NCBI RefSeq assembly: GCF_003018255.1
Contig: NZ_CP027440.1
DNA from: Escherichia coli
GTDB taxonomy: Bacteria > Pseudomonadota > Gammaproteobacteria > Enterobacterales > Enterobacteriaceae
Strand: one strand, 5' to 3'
Length of the DNA stretch: 64,000 nt
This document shows positions 1-51,670 of this stretch, piece by piece. A program made the position numbers and the translations under genes. The notes under the pieces are model-generated. The model was given only the letters and a program-made list of their open reading frames with translations. It was not told where the DNA came from and did not search any database. How positions within the stretch are numbered: position 1 is the first letter of the stretch; every line of letters begins with the position of its first letter.

Positions 1-39
1 CCTGAACAACTGGCACCTGCTGCGTCACCGGAGAACCCG

Positions 40-312
40 ATGGCGCAACATATAAAATCCCACAATTCTGAAGTCGATCCGGCCATTAAGCGGGGGCGGC
101 GTTCGCACGTATTTAAAACTGACTGGTACCAGCATCCCCCATGCACTGAAGAACAGGCCGAATGGCTGATCCAGTGTTACCGCAGGCGCGGATATGAGTT
201 TGAGAAAGCCCTCAGCCTCGATTATCGTCACTGGATAATCTCCGTCAGGCTCCCTTATTCCGAACGCCCACCGCGTCCGTCCCGCACATTCCAGCAGCGC
301 ATCTGGAGGTAA
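40..312 (+). CDS. hypothetical phage protein (nin region)
   Basis: 90-aa ORF, ATG preceded by GGAGA; lies upstream of rusA/Q in a lambdoid late-regulatory region; no family recognised. Confidence 0.4.
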   Translation: MAQHIKSHNSEVDPAIKRGRRSHVFKTDWYQHPPCTEEQAEWLIQCYRRRGYEFEKALSLDYRHWIISVRLPYSERPPRPSRTFQQRIWR

Positions 313-313
313 C

Positions 314-1363
314 GTGCGGGTATTACTTCGACCTGTTCTGGTACCGGAACTCGGTCTGGTTATCGTTAAGCCAGGCCGTGAATCAATGTCAGCATTCCAT
401 AACGGCAGAATATTGGTGGAGGCGGAACCGAAAAACATGCGCGATCTGCCGTCCGGAGTCGTTCCTGCCGTTCGCCAGCCGCTGGCAGAGGATAAAACAT
501 TACTGCCATTTTTCAGCGATGAGCGGGTTATTCGTGCAGCAGGTGGTGCAGGTGCACTGTCTGACTGGTTATTACGTCACGTGAAATCCTGCCAGTGGCC
601 ACACGGCGATTATCATCACAGCGAAACAGCCATTCACCGTTATGGTACCGGCGCGATGGTGTTGTGCTGGCACTGTGACAACCAGCTGCGCGACCAGACA
701 TCAGAATCACTCGATCAACTTGCTCAGCAGAATCTGGTTGCCTGGATGATTGATGTCATCCGTCACGCAATAAGCGGTACGCAGGAGAGGGAGTTATCGC
801 TGGCCGAATTATCCTGGTGGGCGGCCTGCAATCAGGTGGTGGATGCACTACCTGAGGCAGTAGCGCGTCGTTCGCTGGGATTACCAGCGGAAAAAATCCG
901 CTCCGTATACCGTGAGAGTGACATCGTACCGGGAGAACAGACAGCCATCAGCATACTGAAGCAGCGCACAAAAAATATTGCGCTGCCACTTCACGTCCAC
1001 CAGCAACAAAATCCACCACAGAAAAAAACGGTTGTCAGTATCGCCGTTGATCCGGAGTCTCCTGAATCGTTCATGAGGCGGCCTAAACGTCGCCGTTGGG
1101 TTAATGAGAAATACACGCGCTGGGTAAAGACACAGCCGTGTGCGTGTTGTGGTAAGCCAGCTGACGATCCGCATCACCTGATTGGTCATGGTCAGGGGGG
1201 AGTGGGAACAAAGGCCCACGATATTTTCACGCTACCGTTGTGCCGGGAGCACCACAACGAACTTCATGCAGACCCGCTGAAGTTTGAGAAAAAGTACGGC
1301 TCTCAGATTGAGTTAATTTTTCGTTTTCTTGATCACGCCTTTGCGACTGGCGTGCTCGGGTAA
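314..1363 (+). CDS. DUF968-like phage protein with C-terminal Cys/His (HNH-like) cluster
   Basis: 349-aa ORF, GTG start abutting upstream stop; C-terminus CACCGKP..DPHHLIGHGQ..CREHHNELH resembles YdfU-type proteins that sit beside rusA/Q in lambdoid prophages. Confidence 0.55.
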   Translation: MRVLLRPVLVPELGLVIVKPGRESMSAFHNGRILVEAEPKNMRDLPSGVVPAVRQPLAEDKTLLPFFSDERVIRAAGGAGALSDWLLRHVKSCQWPHGDYHHSETAIHRYGTGAMVLCWHCDNQLRDQTSESLDQLAQQNLVAWMIDVIRHAISGTQERELSLAELSWWAACNQVVDALPEAVARRSLGLPAEKIRSVYRESDIVPGEQTAISILKQRTKNIALPLHVHQQQNPPQKKTVVSIAVDPESPESFMRRPKRRRWVNEKYTRWVKTQPCACCGKPADDPHHLIGHGQGGVGTKAHDIFTLPLCREHHNELHADPLKFEKKYGSQIELIFRFLDHAFATGVLG

Positions 1364-1375
1364 AAGAGGTGACTG

Positions 1376-1738
1376 ATGCTCATAGATTTGGTTTTACCTT
1401 ACCCGCCGACGGTGAACACTTACTGGCGACGCCGTGGCAGCACATATTTTGTATCAAAAGCCGGGGAGCGTTATCGCCGGGCAGTGGCGCTTATTGTTCG
1501 CCAGCAGCGACTGAAATTAAGCCTGTCCGGACGGCTGGCAATAAAAATTATTGCAGAGCCACCGGATAAGCGCCGCCGTGACCTGGACAATATTCTGAAA
1601 GCACCGCTGGATGCGCTGACGCACGCGGGGTTGTTAATGGACGATGAGCAGTTTGATGAAATCAATATTGTACGTGGCAAGCCAGTATCTGGTGGACGGC
1701 TGGAGATAAGAATTACAGAGGTGGGTGTGCATGAATAA
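1376..1738 (+). CDS. rusA: Holliday-junction resolvase RusA
   Basis: 120-aa product of typical RusA length, with acidic DLDN motif; located immediately upstream of Q. Confidence 0.85.
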   Translation: MLIDLVLPYPPTVNTYWRRRGSTYFVSKAGERYRRAVALIVRQQRLKLSLSGRLAIKIIAEPPDKRRRDLDNILKAPLDALTHAGLLMDDEQFDEINIVRGKPVSGGRLEIRITEVGVHE

Positions 1739-2396
1739 CCAGTATTTACAGTTTGTTCGTGAGCAACTCATGATTGCCACTGCGGATCTTAGTGGGTCGA
1801 CAAAAGGCCAGCTGGAAGTCTGGCAGGAAAATGCCCTGTTCGATACAGGGCGTTACAGACGCAAAAAAATTCGTTACCGCGATGAGGTAACCGGAAAAAT
1901 GATCACGCGGGATAATCCCCCGATCCCGGGCAAACAATCACTGGCGAAAGGCTCATCAATTGCCCTGGTCAGTCCGGTTGAGTTTTCGACATCATCATGG
2001 CGACGCGCCGTTCTGTCTCTTGAAGAACATCATAAAGCCTGGCTGCTGTGGTGTTACAGCGGTAGCATTTGCTGGGAGCGTCAGATCGCGATAACGCAGT
2101 GGGCGTGGACTGAATTTAATGCTCAATCCGGTACCAGAAAAATTGCAGGAAAAACTCTGGTGCGCCTGAAGACGTTGATCTGGTTGGCGGCGCAGGCGGT
2201 AAAAGCTGAGTTTTTTGGTGGGGAAGGCTACGAATACCAGGAACTGGCGTTACTGGTGGGAGTAACAACCAAAAACTGGTCCAAGACATTTACTGGTCAC
2301 TGGGTTGCAATGAAACACATTTTTCATCGGCTGGATAGTGAAGCTTTATTGTTGGTGGAGGGAACACGTTCAAAACAAAAGGCGGCATTTTCATAG
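1731..2396 (+). CDS. Q: late-gene antiterminator Q
   Basis: ATG at 1731 overlaps the rusA stop; ~221-aa protein in the canonical Q position, followed by a promoter plus short-transcript terminator (pR'/tR'-like). Confidence 0.7.
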   Translation: MNNQYLQFVREQLMIATADLSGSTKGQLEVWQENALFDTGRYRRKKIRYRDEVTGKMITRDNPPIPGKQSLAKGSSIALVSPVEFSTSSWRRAVLSLEEHHKAWLLWCYSGSICWERQIAITQWAWTEFNAQSGTRKIAGKTLVRLKTLIWLAAQAVKAEFFGGEGYEYQELALLVGVTTKNWSKTFTGHWVAMKHIFHRLDSEALLLVEGTRSKQKAAFS

Positions 2397-2403
2397 CAAA
2401 GTA

Positions 2404-2432
2404 TTGCAAAAGTAGATAAAAAGGCATATATT
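2404..2432 (+). promoter_or_regulatory. candidate late promoter pR' (TTGCAA-17 nt-TATATT)
   Basis: Sigma70-like -35/-10 with 17-nt spacer directly downstream of the Q stop. Confidence 0.5.
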
Positions 2433-2482
2433 TCGTGTAAATCTGATATTTTGCCGTTATTATACGTGATGGCAAAGCCACT

Positions 2483-2509
2483 AAAACCCGTGACCGAGCG
2501 GGTTTTTTA
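2483..2509 (+). terminator. intrinsic terminator (tR'-like)
   Basis: 8-bp stem AAAACCCG/CGGGTTTT with 8-nt loop, followed by T-run; ~50 nt downstream of the candidate pR'. Confidence 0.6.
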
Positions 2510-2649
2510 CCCCCCAAAAAATGGCATAGACATTAAACGTGATGACGATTGTGCCAATACTTTCTCCATCAATGACGCCCCTTGACTGCATGGAATCCAA
2601 TTTGTTATGTAATGTGTGTTGATATTTTTGAGTTGTTAATGGTGTTACT

Positions 2650-3363
2650 ATGGATGACAGTGCTCTGCTCAGAAACTCTTCACTTTTTGTTGCTTATATG
2701 GGCTGTCTCGGATGGGGGAGCGCTTATTTCTATGGATGGGGTACTTCATTTTACTATGGCTTTCCATGGTGGGTTGTCGGGGCTGGTGTCGATGATGTAG
2801 CACGAAGTTTGTTTTATGCTGTGACAGTTATTGTTATATTCCTTATTGGATGGGGAGTTGGTATTGTTTTCTTTTTGGGCATAAAACAAAAGCGCAATAT
2901 ACAAAATTTGAGTTTTATCCGGCTTTTTCTCGCGATATTGCTGCTTTTTATTCCACCTGTTCTGGAGTTTTCTGTAATTCATCAGCATGTTGAGCCAGAT
3001 GTACTGATTTTCTGCGTTCTTGCTGCCTTTGCAATCACGCTTTTTGTCAGGTCTGGAAGAAGACTTGTTTCAGTCAAATGTTTTTCGGAAATGTCTGTTA
3101 TTCGCCATCACCGAATTGAGTTCATGATGGCTGGGTTTATGATTTATTTCTGGGCATTCTCTCTTATTGCCGGTTGGTACAAACCACAGTTTAAGAGGGA
3201 ATATCAGGCGGTCCACTATGAGAATGTATGGTATTACATTATTGCGCGCTATGATGATCGTCTGGTGTTATCGAAATCATACAGGAGTGGGGGTAAGAAA
3301 TTCGTTATATTTAATAGCGGAAATATTAATGATTTTGAAATTAATACTGTCAGAGTACGTTAA
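2650..3363 (+). CDS. polytopic inner-membrane protein, function unknown (cargo gene)
   Basis: 237-aa ORF with several long hydrophobic Trp/Gly/Phe-rich segments; AT-rich; first gene after pR'/tR'. Confidence 0.5.
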   Translation: MDDSALLRNSSLFVAYMGCLGWGSAYFYGWGTSFYYGFPWWVVGAGVDDVARSLFYAVTVIVIFLIGWGVGIVFFLGIKQKRNIQNLSFIRLFLAILLLFIPPVLEFSVIHQHVEPDVLIFCVLAAFAITLFVRSGRRLVSVKCFSEMSVIRHHRIEFMMAGFMIYFWAFSLIAGWYKPQFKREYQAVHYENVWYYIIARYDDRLVLSKSYRSGGKKFVIFNSGNINDFEINTVRVR

Positions 3364-3536
3364 AATTTCCTGAGTAATAAAGATTTTACTGCCCGGCATT
3401 GAGCGGCTTTTTTATGCCAGAAAAATGGTGCAGTACATAAAATGTGCAGGTGGTTATTAATACCGGTCTTTCAGCTTGCTGGCTTTTTTGACAAGAGTTA
3501 TTGGTGTGTCACGTTAACCGGAAAAGGGAAAAAGAC

Positions 3537-3734
3537 ATGCTGAAACAGCAGGATATGACAGAAACCGCCAGAGCAGTTTTTAATGAATTAAGTGCCACCG
3601 AACCGGCGACAGTCGGGGAGATTGCACAGAATACGTACCTTTCACGCGAACGCTGCCAGCTAATACTGACCCAGCTTGTTATGGCGGGTCTGGCAGACTA
3701 TCAGTTCGGTTGTTACAGACGCCTTCAGTCCTGA
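3537..3734 (+). CDS. small putative DNA-binding protein
   Basis: 65 aa from internal ATG of ORF 3501..3734; stop codon embedded in a terminator hairpin; lies upstream of the methyltransferase gene. Confidence 0.4.
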   Translation: MLKQQDMTETARAVFNELSATEPATVGEIAQNTYLSRERCQLILTQLVMAGLADYQFGCYRRLQS

Positions 3735-3884: not shown

Positions 3885-4943
3885 ATGTTTAATACTGTAA
3901 AAATATCCAGTTGTGAGTTAATCAACGCTGACTGCCTGGAATTTATCCGGTCGTTACCCGAAAATTCTGTTGACCTGATAGTCACGGACCCGCCGTACTT
4001 TAAAGTGAAGCCTGAGGGCTGGGATAACCAGTGGAAGGGCGACGATGACTACCTGAAGTGGCTGGACCTGTGTCTGGCGCAGTTCTGGCGGGTGCTGAAA
4101 CCTGCCGGAAGTCTTTACCTGTTCTGTGGCCATCGCCTGGCATCTGACATTGAAATCATGATGCGTGAACGCTTCAGTGTGCTGAACCATATTATCTGGG
4201 CAAAGCCGTCCGGACGCTGGAACGGGTGCAACAAGGAAAGCCTGCGGGCGTATTTCCCCGCCACAGAGCGCATTCTGTTCGCGGAACATTATCAGGGGCC
4301 GTATCGCCCGAAAGATGCCGGGTATGAGGCGAAGGGCAGGGCACTGAAACAGCATGTGATGGCCCCGCTGATTTCTTACTTTCGTGATGCGCGTGCTGCC
4401 CTGGGGATAACGGCAAAACAGATAGTGGATGCCACAGGAAAGAAAAACATGGTGTCGCACTGGTTCAGTGCCAGTCAGTGGCAGCTACCGAACGAAAGCG
4501 ATTATCTGAAATTACAGGCGCTGTTTGCCCGGGTGGCAGAAGAGAAGCATCAGCGGGGGGAACTGGAGAAGCCCCACCACCAGCTGCTGGAGACGTATAC
4601 TTCACTGAACCGGCAGTATGCGGAACTGCAGAGTGAATATAAGCATCTGCGGCGGTATTTTGGCGTGACGGCGCAGGTGCCGTACACGGATGTGTGGACG
4701 CATAAACCGGTGCAGTACTATCCCGGGAAACATCCGTGCGAAAAACCGGCAGAAATGCTGCAGCAGATAATCAGCGCGAGCAGTCGTCCGGGTGACCTGG
4801 TTGCAGATTTTTTCATGGGGTCGGGTTCGACAGTCAAAGCCGCGATGGCGCTGGGGCGTCGTGCAACTGGCGTTGAGCTGGAGACTGAACGTTTTGAGCA
4901 GACGGTCAGGGAAGTTCAGGATTTAGTCAGTCAGAACGGATGA
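3885..4943 (+). CDS. DNA methyltransferase (N6-adenine/N4-cytosine class, DPPY motif)
   Basis: 352-aa ORF with catalytic DPPY motif (IVTDPPY) and C-terminal AdoMet-binding FxGSGS-like motif (FFMGSGST); no adjacent restriction gene seen. Confidence 0.85.
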   Translation: MFNTVKISSCELINADCLEFIRSLPENSVDLIVTDPPYFKVKPEGWDNQWKGDDDYLKWLDLCLAQFWRVLKPAGSLYLFCGHRLASDIEIMMRERFSVLNHIIWAKPSGRWNGCNKESLRAYFPATERILFAEHYQGPYRPKDAGYEAKGRALKQHVMAPLISYFRDARAALGITAKQIVDATGKKNMVSHWFSASQWQLPNESDYLKLQALFARVAEEKHQRGELEKPHHQLLETYTSLNRQYAELQSEYKHLRRYFGVTAQVPYTDVWTHKPVQYYPGKHPCEKPAEMLQQIISASSRPGDLVADFFMGSGSTVKAAMALGRRATGVELETERFEQTVREVQDLVSQNG

Positions 4944-4983
4944 TATTGCAGGATTAGTTACGTACCGTTATTATCCTGCGACC

Positions 4984-5059
4984 GGCCCTTTAGCTCAGTG
5001 GTGAGAGCGAGCGACTCATAATCGCCAGGTCGCTGGTTCAAATCCAGCAAGGGCCACCA
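4984..5059 (+). tRNA. tRNA with CAT anticodon, ileX-like (tRNA-Ile2, lysidine) rather than Met
   Basis: 76-nt cloverleaf folded by hand: acceptor GGCCCTT/AAGGGCC, anticodon loop CTCATAA, T-loop TTCAAAT, 3' CCA encoded; close to remembered ileX sequence. Confidence 0.8.
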
Positions 5060-5068
5060 TATCACATA

Positions 5069-5145
5069 CCGCCATTAGCTCATCGGGATAGAGCGCCAGC
5101 CTTCGAAGCTGGCTGCGCGGGGTTCGAGTCCTCGATGGCGGTCCA
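5069..5145 (+). tRNA. tRNA-Arg (anticodon TCG)
   Basis: 77-nt cloverleaf: acceptor CCGCCAT/ATGGCGG, anticodon loop CTTCGAA, T-loop TTCGAGT, CCA encoded; 9 nt after the first tRNA. Confidence 0.75.
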
Positions 5146-5423
5146 TTATCTGCATTATGCGTTGTTGGTTCTGATGAGTGAATCATTGTCTTTTGAGCAA
5201 CAGGCTATCATATAAGATAGCCTCAGACTTCCTTGTTTATTCTCGCCGGATGCTTCGTAGATATTTGCAGGCATCTGTATGCAGGGGTATTATTGCGGCA
5301 TATATCATCCGGAAAAATAAAAACTACATGCTGATCCGGAGATGATAGTTACAAGTCCTCCCGGATCCCGCATATTTACTATATTTTATAGATAATTGTT
5401 CTTGTTAATATGGAGATGGATAA

Positions 5424-5852
5424 ATGTATTGCCGTGCTGTACCTGTTCTTGTTTTGATATTAGCCAGTCTGACAACTGGCTGCACAAAAGATGTATCGAC
5501 AAATAATCATGATGCTTCTCTGTATCACTCAGATAAATTAATAACGTCGCAAAAATTGAGCTCATCGGAACGTACCCCTGATGCCAGTGAAGAAATCCGG
5601 CAGTATGCCATTCAGGTCAGGAAAGCCATAGAAGAACAGTTAAAGGATGCGAGTAAGTATTCAGGAAAAGAGTGTTCACTGAGAATGTATATGGCCCCGA
5701 ATGGTCTTCTGCTACGGGTTAAAAGAGAAAGCGGTGATCCCGATTTATGTCGTGAAGCGATGAATGCAGTAAAGAATGCTGATATACCATCACCACCGTC
5801 TTCAGGAGTATATAAAGCATTTAGAAATGGCGTGCTGGATTTTAAACTCTGA
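5424..5852 (+). CDS. lipoprotein with TolA C-terminal (domain III)-like domain
   Basis: Signal peptide ending in LTTGC lipobox-like motif; C-terminal ~85 aa (GKECSLRMYMAPNGLLLRVKRESGDPDLCREAM..IPSPPSSGVYKAFRNGVLDFKL) aligns with remembered E. coli TolA C-terminus; GGAG RBS. Confidence 0.75.
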   Translation: MYCRAVPVLVLILASLTTGCTKDVSTNNHDASLYHSDKLITSQKLSSSERTPDASEEIRQYAIQVRKAIEEQLKDASKYSGKECSLRMYMAPNGLLLRVKRESGDPDLCREAMNAVKNADIPSPPSSGVYKAFRNGVLDFKL

Positions 5853-5987
5853 CAGGGGGAGAAGATTTTCTCCTGTCCTGATGATTTTGGGGCGCTGGAA
5901 AGATATTGTGCTGTGAAGTGTTAAATCCCTCACAATTCAGTAAGTTGACAGTTGCCTGTCAGACTGAGCATTTGTTAAAAAAATTTC

Positions 5988-6165
5988 GCATGGTGAATCC
6001 CCCTGTGCGGAGGGGCGACTGGTGAACGGTATGATCTCTTTGATGATCGTAAGCGAGAATACGCGGGTTTGGTGTCACCGGGCTGAACTCACCGGGAGGC
6101 ACCCGGCACCATGCTCATGGTGATACAGAAATGCGGCTTCAGCCCCTCTCCGGAGGGGCTTTCTT
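5988..6165 (+). ncRNA. candidate structured sRNA, repeat family A copy 1
   Basis: Promoter-like TTGCCT-18-TAAAAA, then 5' CAUGGUG, hairpin CCCCU-GUGCGG-AGGGG, hairpin CCGGG-AGGCA-CCCGG, 3' CACCAUG pairing back to the 5' end, and terminator GCCCCTC-TCCG-GAGGGGC plus T-run. Confidence 0.45.
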
Positions 6166-6171
6166 ATGGAC

Positions 6172-6240
6172 AAAAAAAGCCCGCGCTGGGAGACGCGGGC
6201 GGCAAGGAATAAACAATAAAACGTGAAGTAATACTTCAAC
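6172..6240 (-). ncRNA. candidate antisense sRNA, family B copy 1
   Basis: Minus-strand TTGCGC-18-TATTAT promoter (plus 6247-6276), ~70-nt transcript with internal hairpin GAAGT-ATT-ACTTC, ending at terminator GCCCGCG..CGCGGGC plus T-run. Confidence 0.45.
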
Positions 6241-6312
6241 TGGCGAATAATACCCGACAGTAATCACTCTGCGCAATAGCGTGGCCTTTTTCGAATTGCG
6301 GGCTGTAGTCTC

Positions 6313-6484
6313 CCTTCTGCCGGGTGTCCTGGTTGCAGATTTCTTCATGGGGTAGGGTTCGGCAGTTAAAGCAGCGATGGTGCTGGGGCGTCGTGCAACT
6401 GGCGTTGAGCTGGATACCGGGCGTTTTGAACAGACTGCGCAGGAAATCAGGGATGTATTTAGCGGGAGCGGTTTGCAGAAGTAA
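6313..6484 (+). pseudogene. 3' fragment of a DNA methyltransferase gene (duplicate of the 4781-4943 region, in-frame TAG)
   Basis: ~170 nt nearly collinear with the 3' end of the intact methylase gene (DLVADFFMG..GRRATGVEL..), interrupted by a stop; lacks the 5' 90% of the gene. Confidence 0.7.
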
Positions 6485-6547
6485 TCTCCCAAAATGCCAT
6501 TTTTGGAATATACTGGTATTAAGTCTTTTTGCTCAGGTTAATTCAAA

Positions 6548-7273
6548 ATGGATGTTGCCTGCTCTGTGGTCCTGATTCGCTATCCGATAGATATTTTTCT
6601 TGAAAAAGAAAAAGTTTCACTCGATGCCGGAAGTGTTATGCTTGTTGCCAGAAATATAAGAGGGCTTTTCTGTGCTTATGCCGACAGAGTGAAAATGGCA
6701 GATATAAGTAACAGCGTCGTCAATCAGTATCTGGAAAGGGAGTGTGAACTGACGGAGTATACACCGACAAAAATGCCTCTTTATTTGATGTCTGATATTT
6801 ACAATACGGAACTGGCGGAGGCTTTAATAACCCAGCATAGTGAATCCAGTGATACTTTGAAGGATTTCTCTGTTATAACCGCATTTTCATGTATCTCCTT
6901 ATTTGCAACAGACAGACGTCTGCCATTATTTTTGTCCGGTGCTGTAAATAATATCAGCTGTAAAGTAAGGGCTATAATTCAGACCGACATATCGGCAGGC
7001 TGGATGCTTGGTGTGATTGCATTACAATTGCATATGAGCGAAAGCTTGTTGAAGCGAAAACTTAAGGATGAAGGTTATAGCTTTAGTCGGTTGTTGCTGG
7101 AGGAGCGAATGCGTGTTGCTGTTAATCTTGTATGTTTCCAGCGAGAGTGTGGACAAGCGATAGCGGAAAAATGTGGTTACTCAAGTAAGTCCTACTTCAT
7201 TTCTGTATTTCACCAGTATTATGGTGCACCACCTGAGAGCTATGCATATTTGCAGAAAGCAGACGTTATCTGA
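6548..7273 (+). CDS. AraC/XylS-family transcriptional regulator (cargo gene)
   Basis: 241-aa ORF with C-terminal dual helix-turn-helix typical of AraC family (..LKDEGYSFSRLLLEERMRVA..IAEKCGYSSKSYFISVFHQYYGAPPESY); start codon uncertain. Confidence 0.7.
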   Translation: MDVACSVVLIRYPIDIFLEKEKVSLDAGSVMLVARNIRGLFCAYADRVKMADISNSVVNQYLERECELTEYTPTKMPLYLMSDIYNTELAEALITQHSESSDTLKDFSVITAFSCISLFATDRRLPLFLSGAVNNISCKVRAIIQTDISAGWMLGVIALQLHMSESLLKRKLKDEGYSFSRLLLEERMRVAVNLVCFQRECGQAIAEKCGYSSKSYFISVFHQYYGAPPESYAYLQKADVI

Positions 7274-7362
7274 TGTTTTTTCATCAGGCATATATTGATT
7301 GACTGTATTAGATATAGTCTGAATGTGTTCAGCATAAAAAGTTATAATCATTTGGTGTTTGC

Positions 7363-7641
7363 GTGAATATTGATGAGAAAATCAGATGTAGCCAACTGTT
7401 ACAGCGTATTGAAGCCGTCAATGTGGAACGAACAAAGGTCTTCAGTCGTCTGACAGTTTTATTTTGTACCCCTGATCGACGTTCAGGTCAGGAGATGGTT
7501 CTTCTGGATGTAGATGCACTTCGGAACGTCTGTGAGGAGTTCACCGCGGCTAATTCGGAGTTACTGAGTCTTGTTCAGGAGTACAACAGAATTGCAGGTA
7601 GTAACGGTTTTGATGAAATCAAAATTATATCCCGTGGATAA
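7363..7641 (+). CDS. hypothetical protein
   Basis: 92-aa ORF with GTG start 15 nt downstream of a perfect TATAAT; no family recognised; weak RBS. Confidence 0.3.
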   Translation: MNIDEKIRCSQLLQRIEAVNVERTKVFSRLTVLFCTPDRRSGQEMVLLDVDALRNVCEEFTAANSELLSLVQEYNRIAGSNGFDEIKIISRG

Positions 7642-7899
7642 AACATATCCTGTATATTTATGTTGTTACATACAGGCGCTTTTAGTATCTGCCGCACGGC
7701 AGTTGTACTTCAGAATAAGATGCTTTTGTGACTGGTGGTGTTGTATCTGGGGTTAGCCAGTAGGCAGGTTCAGAGAGTCCGGTGGTAATTATGTGTATGC
7801 AGTGGTTGTTGCTGTACCGTGGGCAAGTTCTGGAACTGGCTTCGTCCATTGTAGATGATTGTTAGCTGGATATCAGTTACCTCATGGAAATGTTAAATG

Positions 7900-42660: not shown

Positions 42661-43130
42661 AACGATAACTCCGTACATTTGAAAATTATCGCCACCTTCA
42701 GGTTCCAATCATCATGGTGGCGAACTGTGCGGGGTTGGAACTACCGGGTACGGAAACCGGCGAGCCTTTCGGCTCCCCCACACAGCCCGCCATAAATCGC
42801 GAATGTGACTGTGCAAACGATATGAAAAAAGACGCGGGCGCGTCTCATATCGCTCCGTAAACATCCGGGGTTCCAATCCCGACGCCAGATTTTGCTGACG
42901 CGTTGGAAATATAGCCCCGGAGGATAAAAACTGTCAACGGGTAAAAAAATTTCCGTTATCAGGAATGTATAAAATTAAAGCAATCGAGCAAAAAAACTCT
43001 CTGCAAAACTAAAAAAGATCTCAATAAAATCAGGCAGTTAAAAACACGGAAAAACGGTATAAAAAAGCATCTCAAAATCCTGTTTTTTCTTTCAGATACA
43101 ATATGTTATTGCATTTTTTAAAACCTGCCA

Positions 43131-51555: not shown

Positions 51556-51582
51556 AAAAAAAAGCCCGCTCATTAGGCGGGC
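51556..51582 (-). terminator. trp attenuator terminator
   Basis: Minus-strand AGCCCGCCTAATGAGCGGGCT hairpin followed by T8, between trpL and trpE. Confidence 0.85.
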
Positions 51583-51625
51583 TGGGTATCTGATTGCTTT
51601 ACGCATGGTGAATACACTGCCCGTT

Positions 51626-51670
51626 TCAGGAAGTGCGCCACCAACCTTTCAGTACGAAAATTGCTTTCAT
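51626..51670 (-). CDS. trpL: trp operon leader peptide ([14 protein letters not shown])
   Basis: 14-codon ORF with tandem Trp codons read directly from the minus strand. Confidence 0.85.

Follow-up and report, generated by a model that had tools for sequence, protein, structure and literature searches.

A methylase remnant beside an AraC-family regulator gene at a mosaic joint in an Escherichia coli prophage

A 64,000-nucleotide (nt) stretch of Escherichia coli DNA, taken from contig NZ_CP027440.1 of assembly GCF_003018255.1 and referred to here as the window, contains at positions 6313-7641 the truncated 3' end of a DNA methyltransferase (methylase) gene, followed by a gene for an AraC-family regulator and a 92-codon open reading frame (ORF92). 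An intact methylase gene resides upstream, and units of the small RNA (sRNA) STnc100 lie on both sides of the block. We propose, with a probability of about 0.7, that the block arose when two related lambdoid phage or prophage genomes underwent a single illegitimate crossover out of register. The crossover would have occurred in the cargo region between the gene for antiterminator Q and the lysis genes. One parent, phage A, would have carried a methylase gene, genes for tRNA-Ile/Arg, a TolA-like gene, STnc100, a leader, and nanS-p, while the other, phage B, would have carried a methylase gene, the gene for the AraC-like regulator, ORF92, an STnc100 array, a leader, and nanS-p. Joining of the A nanS-p leader, 62 nt before the start codon, to approximately codon 298 of the B methylase gene would have yielded a recombinant with all of the A cargo, a dead methylase tail of 165 nt, and all of the B cargo. 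A single crossover of this kind would account for the presence of two diverged versions of each of three elements (the methylase 3' end, STnc100, and the leader), with STnc100 on both flanks because both parental phages carry units upstream of nanS-p.

Results

The left boundary is a non-homologous join in a nanS-p leader

The sequence at positions 6150-6321 is 94% identical to the sequence running from STnc100 to nanS-p in a Shiga toxin 2a (Stx2a) phage (L002, 5223-5404) and in an O157 prophage (L004). In the Stx2a phage, this leader continues for a further 62 nt to the ATG of nanS-p (yjhS), which starts at position 5466 of L002. In the window, homology to the A-side leader ends at 6321 and homology to methylase genes begins at 6320-6322. 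The sequence across the join is ...CTCCCTTCTGCC/GGGTGTCCTGGTTGCAG... (TTCTGCC/GGGTG), with ~2 nt of microhomology. The junction (6321/6322) is located ~150 nt past the terminator of STnc100 unit 1, inside the nanS-p leader, where there is no repeat. The left boundary is a non-homologous join, with no crossover within a repeat, and does not support recombination between the repeats as the founding mechanism, as suggested in the initial annotation of this DNA. Identity between STnc100 unit 1 and units 2-5 is 70-79%, and it is 68% when unit 1 and the A-side leader (5907-6276) are compared with the stretch from unit 5 into the B-side leader (8669-9025).

The methylase remnant

Alignment of the window with itself by BLAST matched positions 6320-6435 to positions 4788-4903 of the resident methylase gene, with 89.7% identity over 116 nt (E = 1.8e-39). 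The initial annotation had described a near-duplicate of the resident 3' end at 6313-6484, interrupted by a stop codon. The methylase tail and its stop codon are real, but the homology starts only at the junction described above, and near-duplication is limited to the first 116 nt. Translated in frame with the methylase, the fragment gives PGVLVADFFMG-stop-GSAVKAAMVLGRRATGVELDTGRFEQTAQEIRDVFSGSGLQK-stop. The in-frame TAG at 6353-6355 replaces the first serine of the FxGxG motif, which now reads FFMG-stop-GS, and the natural stop codon is at 6482-6484. The last ~48 nt encode a C-terminal tail unlike that of the resident gene. This tail carries DTGRFEQTAQEIRDVFSGSGLQK, ends with ...ELDTGRFEQTAQEIRDVFSGSGLQK before the stop codon, and is identical to the tail of an intact methylase from the E. 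coli genome SMBL.

The fragment shows significant in-frame similarity to the N6/N4 DNA methyltransferase family (PF01555). The resident protein has DPPY at residues 35-38 and FxGxG near its C terminus, whereas the fragment, beginning at ~codon 298, has no counterpart to DPPY 35-38 (motif IV, DPPY/F) and has neither an uninterrupted frame nor an intact FxGxG motif for binding S-adenosylmethionine (AdoMet). No enzyme can be encoded by the fragment, from which the DPPY catalytic half is missing and whose AdoMet motif contains a premature stop codon. The Prokaryotic Genome Annotation Pipeline (PGAP) labels it in near-identical RefSeq genomes as a pseudogene, 'DNA methyltransferase; internal stop; incomplete; missing N-terminus'; it is thus already an annotated pseudogene, and no activity is expected from it.

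The resident methylase is the phage A copy, and the fragment is a different allele. It is up to 91.4% identical to methylase genes of Stx phages. Across carriers, the fragment hardly varies and has 85-91% identity to the resident copies; in one prophage (L011), the fragment and the AraC gene are present without any intact methylase. Its different tail and its occurrence with AraC in L011 show that the fragment was not copied from the resident gene. Counting the substitutions between the two, which had been suggested as a way to estimate the age of the event, was rejected: the alignment is of different alleles, and divergence between alleles from different phages cannot date the event. Variable sites among carriers are densest in the first 60 nt of the fragment (6322-6381), at 6.7 per 100 nt compared with 0.8 in the AraC gene and 0 in ORF92, and in the lineage that lacks AraC the fragment is the most diverged of the A-side and junction-side segments, at 93.9%. 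Both patterns fit neutral decay of the fragment.

Both parental layouts occur in sequenced prophages

A search for prophages with a methylase gene directly before the AraC gene, also suggested in the initial annotation, gave positive results. An intact methylase of 349 amino acids (aa) is encoded in the IMG/VR contig L029 and in several E. coli draft genomes (L042-L046), followed by an 86-nt spacer and homologues of the AraC regulator and ORF92, in the order Q, 65-aa protein, methylase, AraC, ORF92, TerB, DUF3927, and holin. Amino acid identity to the window is 84% for the methylase, 64% for AraC, and 62% for ORF92. A single colinear BLAST alignment with 69.5% nt identity pairs window positions 6330-7235 with L029 4778-5688, spanning the methylase tail, the spacer, and the regulator gene, and a second alignment to L029 covers window positions 7363-7659. 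In three-way and six-way alignments, the spacer at 6485-6547 aligns with the methylase-to-AraC spacer of the intact-methylase prophages and not with the methylase-to-tRNA spacer. Because these prophages are colinear with the block, including the spacer, the fragment is the remnant of a methylase gene that natively preceded the regulator gene, and the proposal that a piece of the donor methylase travelled with the regulator is supported.

The layout proposed for parent A also exists: L048 has the methylase, tRNAs, TolA-like gene, STnc100, and nanS-p without the scar, as we call the truncated methylase at its junction with the leader. A second, independent methylase truncation of the same kind is found in L045 (3745-6000), where the first 161 methylase codons have given way to an insertion sequence (IS) 1 remnant and a gene for a family-2 glycosyltransferase, and residues 162-349 are kept before the AraC homologue.

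SMBL and exchange between methylase copies

In SMBL (L030, NZ_CP061914.1 2108179-2110035) and in the IMG/VR contig L015, an AraC regulator gene identical to that in the window directly follows the gene for an intact 355-aa methylase, and neither has the tRNAs, the TolA-like gene, or STnc100 unit 1. Across 5,426 complete E. coli genomes, which form the survey set for this analysis, SMBL is the only one with an intact methylase gene directly before the identical AraC gene. SMBL differs from window positions 6320-7900 by 12 substitutions, with seven of them within the 55 nt at 6327-6381. In these 55 nt SMBL has the resident-type allele, and downstream it has that of the fragment; at three polymorphic synonymous sites, the ancestral allele of the fragment differs from SMBL. 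The allelic states of the fragment include C at 6343, T at 6367, and A at 6373. The SMBL methylase is a chimera, because 6327-6381 is resident-type and the rest is fragment-type. SMBL was therefore rejected as a proven donor, given its chimeric methylase, the clustering of its differences, and states unlike the ancestral fragment allele. It could be a B-type phage or parent with a methylase gene that recombined later with another allele, or it could have arisen when the two copies recombined homologously and the A cargo was lost.

A 4.9-kb E. coli draft contig (P0069) contains a 67-aa open reading frame (ORF), MAFFELRAVVSLLPGDLVADFFMGSGST...ELETERFEQTAQEIRDVFSGSGLQK, that passes from the nanS-p leader into a methylase tail free of stop codons. 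Its middle matches the allele of the intact gene, and the sequence suggests gene conversion between both methylase copies. Exchange between methylase copies seems to occur.

Carriers, single origin, and a form without AraC

The scar was matched in 88 of the complete genomes. AraC and ORF92 accompany it in 79 of these, with at least 99.2% nucleotide identity, and the remaining nine lack both. At least 80% of the segment from TolA to STnc100 is covered in 122 genomes, ~34 more than carry the scar. The junction and the TAG are identical in all 23 scar-bearing copies inspected, including all 10 IMG/VR contigs with the fragment allele, and because both are the same in every one of them the scar has a single origin. 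Among the AraC-positive scar loci compared, the core at 4944-7886 is at least 98.3% identical segment by segment, with differences of up to 4-6% in the methylase and nanS-p flanks outside it. Once formed, the composite seems to persist and move as one piece. The closest complete genomes are of non-O157 E. coli, such as 05-3629 and OkiPb01697 (99.5-100% identity). Named carriers are mostly of serotypes O91:H21, O113:H21, O104:H21, O22:H8, and O178:H19, which we take to be Shiga-toxin-producing E. coli (STEC) negative for the enterocyte effacement locus (LEE).

The form without AraC (L010, L033, L038) lacks window positions 6510-7798, with the junction GGAAT/GCAGTGG and ~2 nt of microhomology. 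The scar occurs without AraC and ORF92 in the nine complete genomes and in two IMG/VR contigs. After the methylase stop codon, L010 keeps the first 25 nt of the methylase-to-AraC spacer, and we therefore read this form as a probable deletion derivative.

The regulator and ORF92

The two genes described earlier as directly following the fragment, for an AraC-family regulator and a 92-aa protein, are both real. The regulator encoded at 6548-7273 is identical to WP_000382066.1. It matches Pfam HTH_18 at residues 158-232 (E = 5.9e-12) and has two HTH_AraC matches, as expected for the dual helix-turn-helix (HTH) of the AraC/XylS family. The best NCBIfam matches, YdeO and GadX, are both below cut-off, with 119.8 bits against a cut-off of 348 for NF007407 and 92.6 against 500 for NF007432. 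The YdeO profile is matched over the full length (residues 1-230, E = 1.4e-34) and GadX in the C-terminal half. Because the scores are far under the equivalog cut-offs, the regulator is a relative and not an orthologue of YdeO or GadX. YdeO, GadX, and AppY are chromosomal or DLP12-prophage AraC-family activators of glutamate decarboxylase-dependent (GAD/AR2) acid resistance. When GTDB species representatives were scanned with four aligned AraC homologues, no relatives were found; the regulator family appears to be confined to accessory E. coli prophages. No paper mentioning this regulator protein was found in a literature search.

The regulator protein is 100% identical in four carrier loci, and its gene is intact in the carrier loci inspected. 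The ratio of nonsynonymous to synonymous substitution rates (dN/dS) is 0.17-0.22 for the regulator against its homologues and 0.23-0.30 for ORF92. ORF92 keeps its 92 codons and GTG start in four lineages, with aa identity of 62% in L029/L042, 64% in L031, and 60% in L005. Both coding sequences are intact, and purifying selection acts on them. ORF92 has no Pfam match. None of the close relatives inspected (L001, L008, L009, and L011) has a PGAP annotation for it, but an O139:H1 strain does (WP_001017777.1). Qin-like prophages (L005) have it behind the tRNAs, and L031 behind the methylase gene, in both cases with no AraC gene. The guanine-plus-cytosine (GC) content of the AraC-ORF92 segment is 38-43%, compared with 50-57% for the flanking methylase and fragment, and weak hairpins at 6269-6284 and 7689-7702 bound the cargo. 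Remnants of TerB or DUF3927, which follow ORF92 in relatives, were looked for in 7661-7886, and nothing significant was found.

PsrA, PsrB, and PatE, reported by Tree et al. 2011, Bender et al. 2012, and Yang et al. 2015, are described in later articles as AraC-like regulators that prophages of E. coli O157:H7 encode (PMC10877973, PMC8565820). PsrA and PsrB raise expression of gadE and yhiF and repress type III secretion, and acid resistance is activated by PsrB and PatE, which both bind at the promoter of hdeA (PMC10877973, PMC8565820, PMC4456613). The reported binding site of these two proteins spans -132 to -45. PsrA and PsrB are reported to be 91% identical to each other (PMC10877973). The prophage AraC-type regulator AppY also targets gadE, with AppY, PsrB, and PatE all converging on gadE and hdeAB (PMC10057817).

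The regulator in the window resembles PsrA, PsrB, and PatE in its length of ~240 aa, its C-terminal AraC dual HTH, its low-GC gene, its best profile matches to YdeO and GadX, and its place in the lambdoid cargo region from Q to lysis, between Q and the nanS-p and holin genes. It differs in that clustering of proteins at 90% identity sets it apart. Two O157:H7 prophage homologues are 58-59% identical to it and 91% identical to each other, and one is near a PerC/Pch-family gene. In O157:H7, the homologue genes take the place of the methylase gene immediately ahead of the tRNAs, and no methylase remnant is present; the gene in the window has the tRNAs, the TolA-like gene, STnc100, and then the methylase remnant upstream of it. 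By analogy with PsrA, PsrB, and PatE and with YdeO and GadX, the regulator probably activates host acid-resistance promoters of the gadE/hdeAB type (GAD/AR2). If the presumed LEE-negative status of the carrier serotypes holds, repression of LEE type III secretion cannot be its selected role.

Origin of the block

The existence of the L010-like form would also allow the opposite order of events, in which the scar is older than the regulator and a 1,289-bp AraC-ORF92 cassette was inserted later behind the dead tail. The nine complete genomes and two IMG/VR contigs with the scar and without AraC or ORF92 fit this order, and the ~2 nt of microhomology at the indel junction does not indicate a direction. 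We consider it unlikely. The 25 nt retained in L010 are methylase-to-AraC spacer, contiguous with 6510-6547 as already seen in L029, L042-L046, and L030, and the L029 alignment is continuous across the L010 breakpoint. A later insertion would have to land by chance so as to recreate exactly the ancestral colinearity. A similarly low probability attaches to a ready-made cassette of methylase tail, AraC, and ORF92 swapped in by homologous recombination between the flanking STnc100 repeats. STnc100 units do flank the block, and a core more uniform than its flanks makes later spread by homologous exchange in the flanks plausible. However, the foreign left boundary is neither in nor beside a repeat, with the stretch of nanS-p leader after STnc100 unit 1 preceding the abrupt join, and unit 1 is a poor substrate because of its low identity to units 2-5. 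The swap also leaves open how the donor's methylase tail met a nanS-p leader; a donor with STnc100, leader, methylase tail, and AraC in another background has been absent so far, and all copies have a single junction. The remaining account, in which the 3' end of the resident methylase gene was duplicated locally in tandem and the copies then diverged, with AraC as unrelated cargo, draws on the near-duplicate 116 nt, which match a same-strand gene 1.5 kb upstream. It is effectively refuted by the allele and context data: the last 48 nt of the fragment and the spacer downstream match the methylase-to-AraC arrangement and not the resident copy, the resident copies vary while the fragment scarcely does, and L011 has the fragment with no resident methylase.

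Several points weigh against the proposed explanation. A double crossover, illegitimate at one end and homologous downstream, is indistinguishable from a single one. A 'pure' parent B, with the allele of the fragment and a near-identical AraC, was not found: a search for the donor allele with the repaired 58-aa fragment returned mainly short partial proteins at contig ends, with SMBL-type sequence as the best matches. SMBL, the sole complete genome with an intact methylase and the identical AraC, has a chimeric methylase. Because the scar also exists without AraC, in L010, the proposed order of events is one that we infer from spacer homology. The O157 homologues are probably of the PsrA/PsrB type and may correspond to Z1789 and Z2104; the stretch of EDL933 at the approximate O-island coordinates holds a different prophage with no AraC gene. 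A promoter scan found no sigma-70-like promoter on the plus strand upstream of 6548, although a moron, as an autonomous cargo unit, would be expected to have its own promoter and terminator as well as a distinct base composition. The regulator may be expressed from a non-consensus promoter in the remnant or spacer, or by Q-dependent late transcription.

Prophage setting

The first 12 kb of the window are the late-regulatory and cargo region of a lambdoid prophage (Table 1), with holin and lysis genes downstream of nanS-p. Rfam matches elsewhere in the window comprise a C4 antisense RNA with an adjacent isrK RNA, and then a tryptophan operon leader (42713-42901 and 51556-51649, minus strand). 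Because of the tryptophan operon leader, the window probably exits the prophage into the chromosomal trp region.

Table 1 Features of the prophage cargo region in the window.
Feature	Position	Strand	Evidence
DUF968 gene	314-1363		ORF list, annotation in relatives
RusA gene	1376-1738		ORF list, annotation in relatives
Antiterminator Q gene	1725-2396		ORF list, annotation in relatives
Membrane-protein gene, then gene for a 65-77-aa protein	between Q and resident methylase		
Resident intact DNA methyltransferase, 352 aa, PF01555-type	3885-4943	+	ORF, NCBIfam adenine-specific methyltransferase matches, annotation in relatives
tRNA, CAT anticodon	4984-5059	+	ARAGORN, Rfam, PGAP annotation
tRNA-Arg(TCG)	5069-5145	+	ARAGORN, Rfam, PGAP annotation
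TolA C-terminal-domain-like gene, 142 aa	5424-5852	+	NCBIfam TolA matches at residues 54-142; PHROG 5772
STnc100 sRNA unit 1, with terminator hairpin at 6141-6160	5959-6171	+	Rfam RF02076, 172 bits; terminator scan
Remnant of nanS-p upstream leader, A side of junction	6172-6321	+	
Methylase 3' pseudogene, ~codons 298-355 of a 355-codon allele	6322-6484	+	
Methylase-to-AraC spacer, 63 nt	6485-6547	+	
AraC/XylS-family regulator gene, intact, 241 aa	6548-7273	+	
ORF92, 92 codons, GTG start	7363-7641	+	PHROG 2873
Stretch between ORF92 and STnc100 array, with weak hairpin at 7689-7702	7642-7886		
Four tandem STnc100 units, each with ~45 nt of upstream repeat	7887-8910	+	Rfam; self-BLAST repeat register
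B-side (second) nanS-p leader, then nanS-p/SASA-family esterase gene (9138-11102)	8911-11102	+	ORF, annotation in relatives

The RNA-like repeated units that the initial annotation had seen on both sides of the block are STnc100. There are five matches to RF02076, with scores of 119-172 bits (gathering score 47), each over model positions 1-206, and units 2-5 are at 7931-8126, 8190-8399, 8460-8659, and 8721-8910. The tandem units have a period of ~260-270 nt, and their copy number varies among near-identical relatives. The distance from AraC to nanS-p is 1,595 nt in strain 05-3629 and 1,865 nt in the window, and L010 has two downstream units. GC-rich hairpins with T-runs on the minus strand, at 6179-6200 and 8918-8940, lie just past the terminators of the first and last STnc100 units, and these sites could end transcription in both directions.

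The tRNA with the CAT anticodon is called Met (CAT) by ARAGORN and tRNA-Ile by PGAP in relatives; the latter label would fit a lysidine-modified phage tRNA of the ileZ type. The TolA-like gene fills the slot of stx in the layout of the Stx2a phage. The match of its product is limited to the C-terminal domain of TolA, and the PGAP name 'cell envelope integrity protein TolA' overstates it. Insertion sequences are found at the locus in some carriers: ISEc8 (IS66 family) lies between the STnc100 array and nanS-p in RM14516 (L001, 10159-12471), and in RM10410 the match to the AraC block ends at ~7246 of the window, inside the AraC 3' end, with ISVsa5 (IS4-like) within the same matched region.

Discussion

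Cargo of Stx-converting phages, with Q, methylase, tRNAs, stx, STnc100, nanS-p, and lysis genes, has the same gene order and flanks as the window. The window differs in having the TolA-like gene and no stx, and in containing the segment from the methylase tail to nanS-p twice, in two versions. According to the model of phage mosaicism associated with Hendrix, which includes the acquisition of morons, genomes are assembled by illegitimate events that are rare, and shared flanks then allow homologous exchange. The abrupt junction with ~2 nt of microhomology, the truncated gene at the joint, and the low-GC add-on cargo bounded by weak hairpins all fit this process, from which the locus shows no essential difference; it is a textbook instance for which both parental layouts and two derivatives can be found. 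The locus is ordinary prophage mosaicism, with an annotated pseudogene at a mosaic joint beside an uncharacterised member of a known family of regulators. Its interest is as a clean and traceable case of lambdoid cargo stacking, in which two cargo sets were merged and in which both layouts, together with the two derivatives, are present in sequenced E. coli.

A more speculative reading, which we regard as improbable, is that the methylase tail and spacer (~6382-6547) are not a neutral scar and instead carry the promoter, operator, or 5' leader of the regulator gene. If this were true, such a cis-regulatory remnant would explain why the methylase 3' end was kept in two independent truncations, those of the scar lineage and of L045, and why substitutions are concentrated in the first 60 nt of the fragment. 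It would also explain how the regulator stays expressed and wired into the GAD regulon of STEC regarded as LEE-negative, in which the repression of LEE described for O157:H7 could play no part.

The practical value of the finding is modest. It draws attention to an uncharacterised Psr/PatE-like regulator, WP_000382066.1, in ~1.5% of complete E. coli genomes. It is a candidate means by which prophages could control acid resistance in food-borne, non-O157 Shiga-toxin-producing strains, such as those of serotypes O113:H21 and O91:H21.

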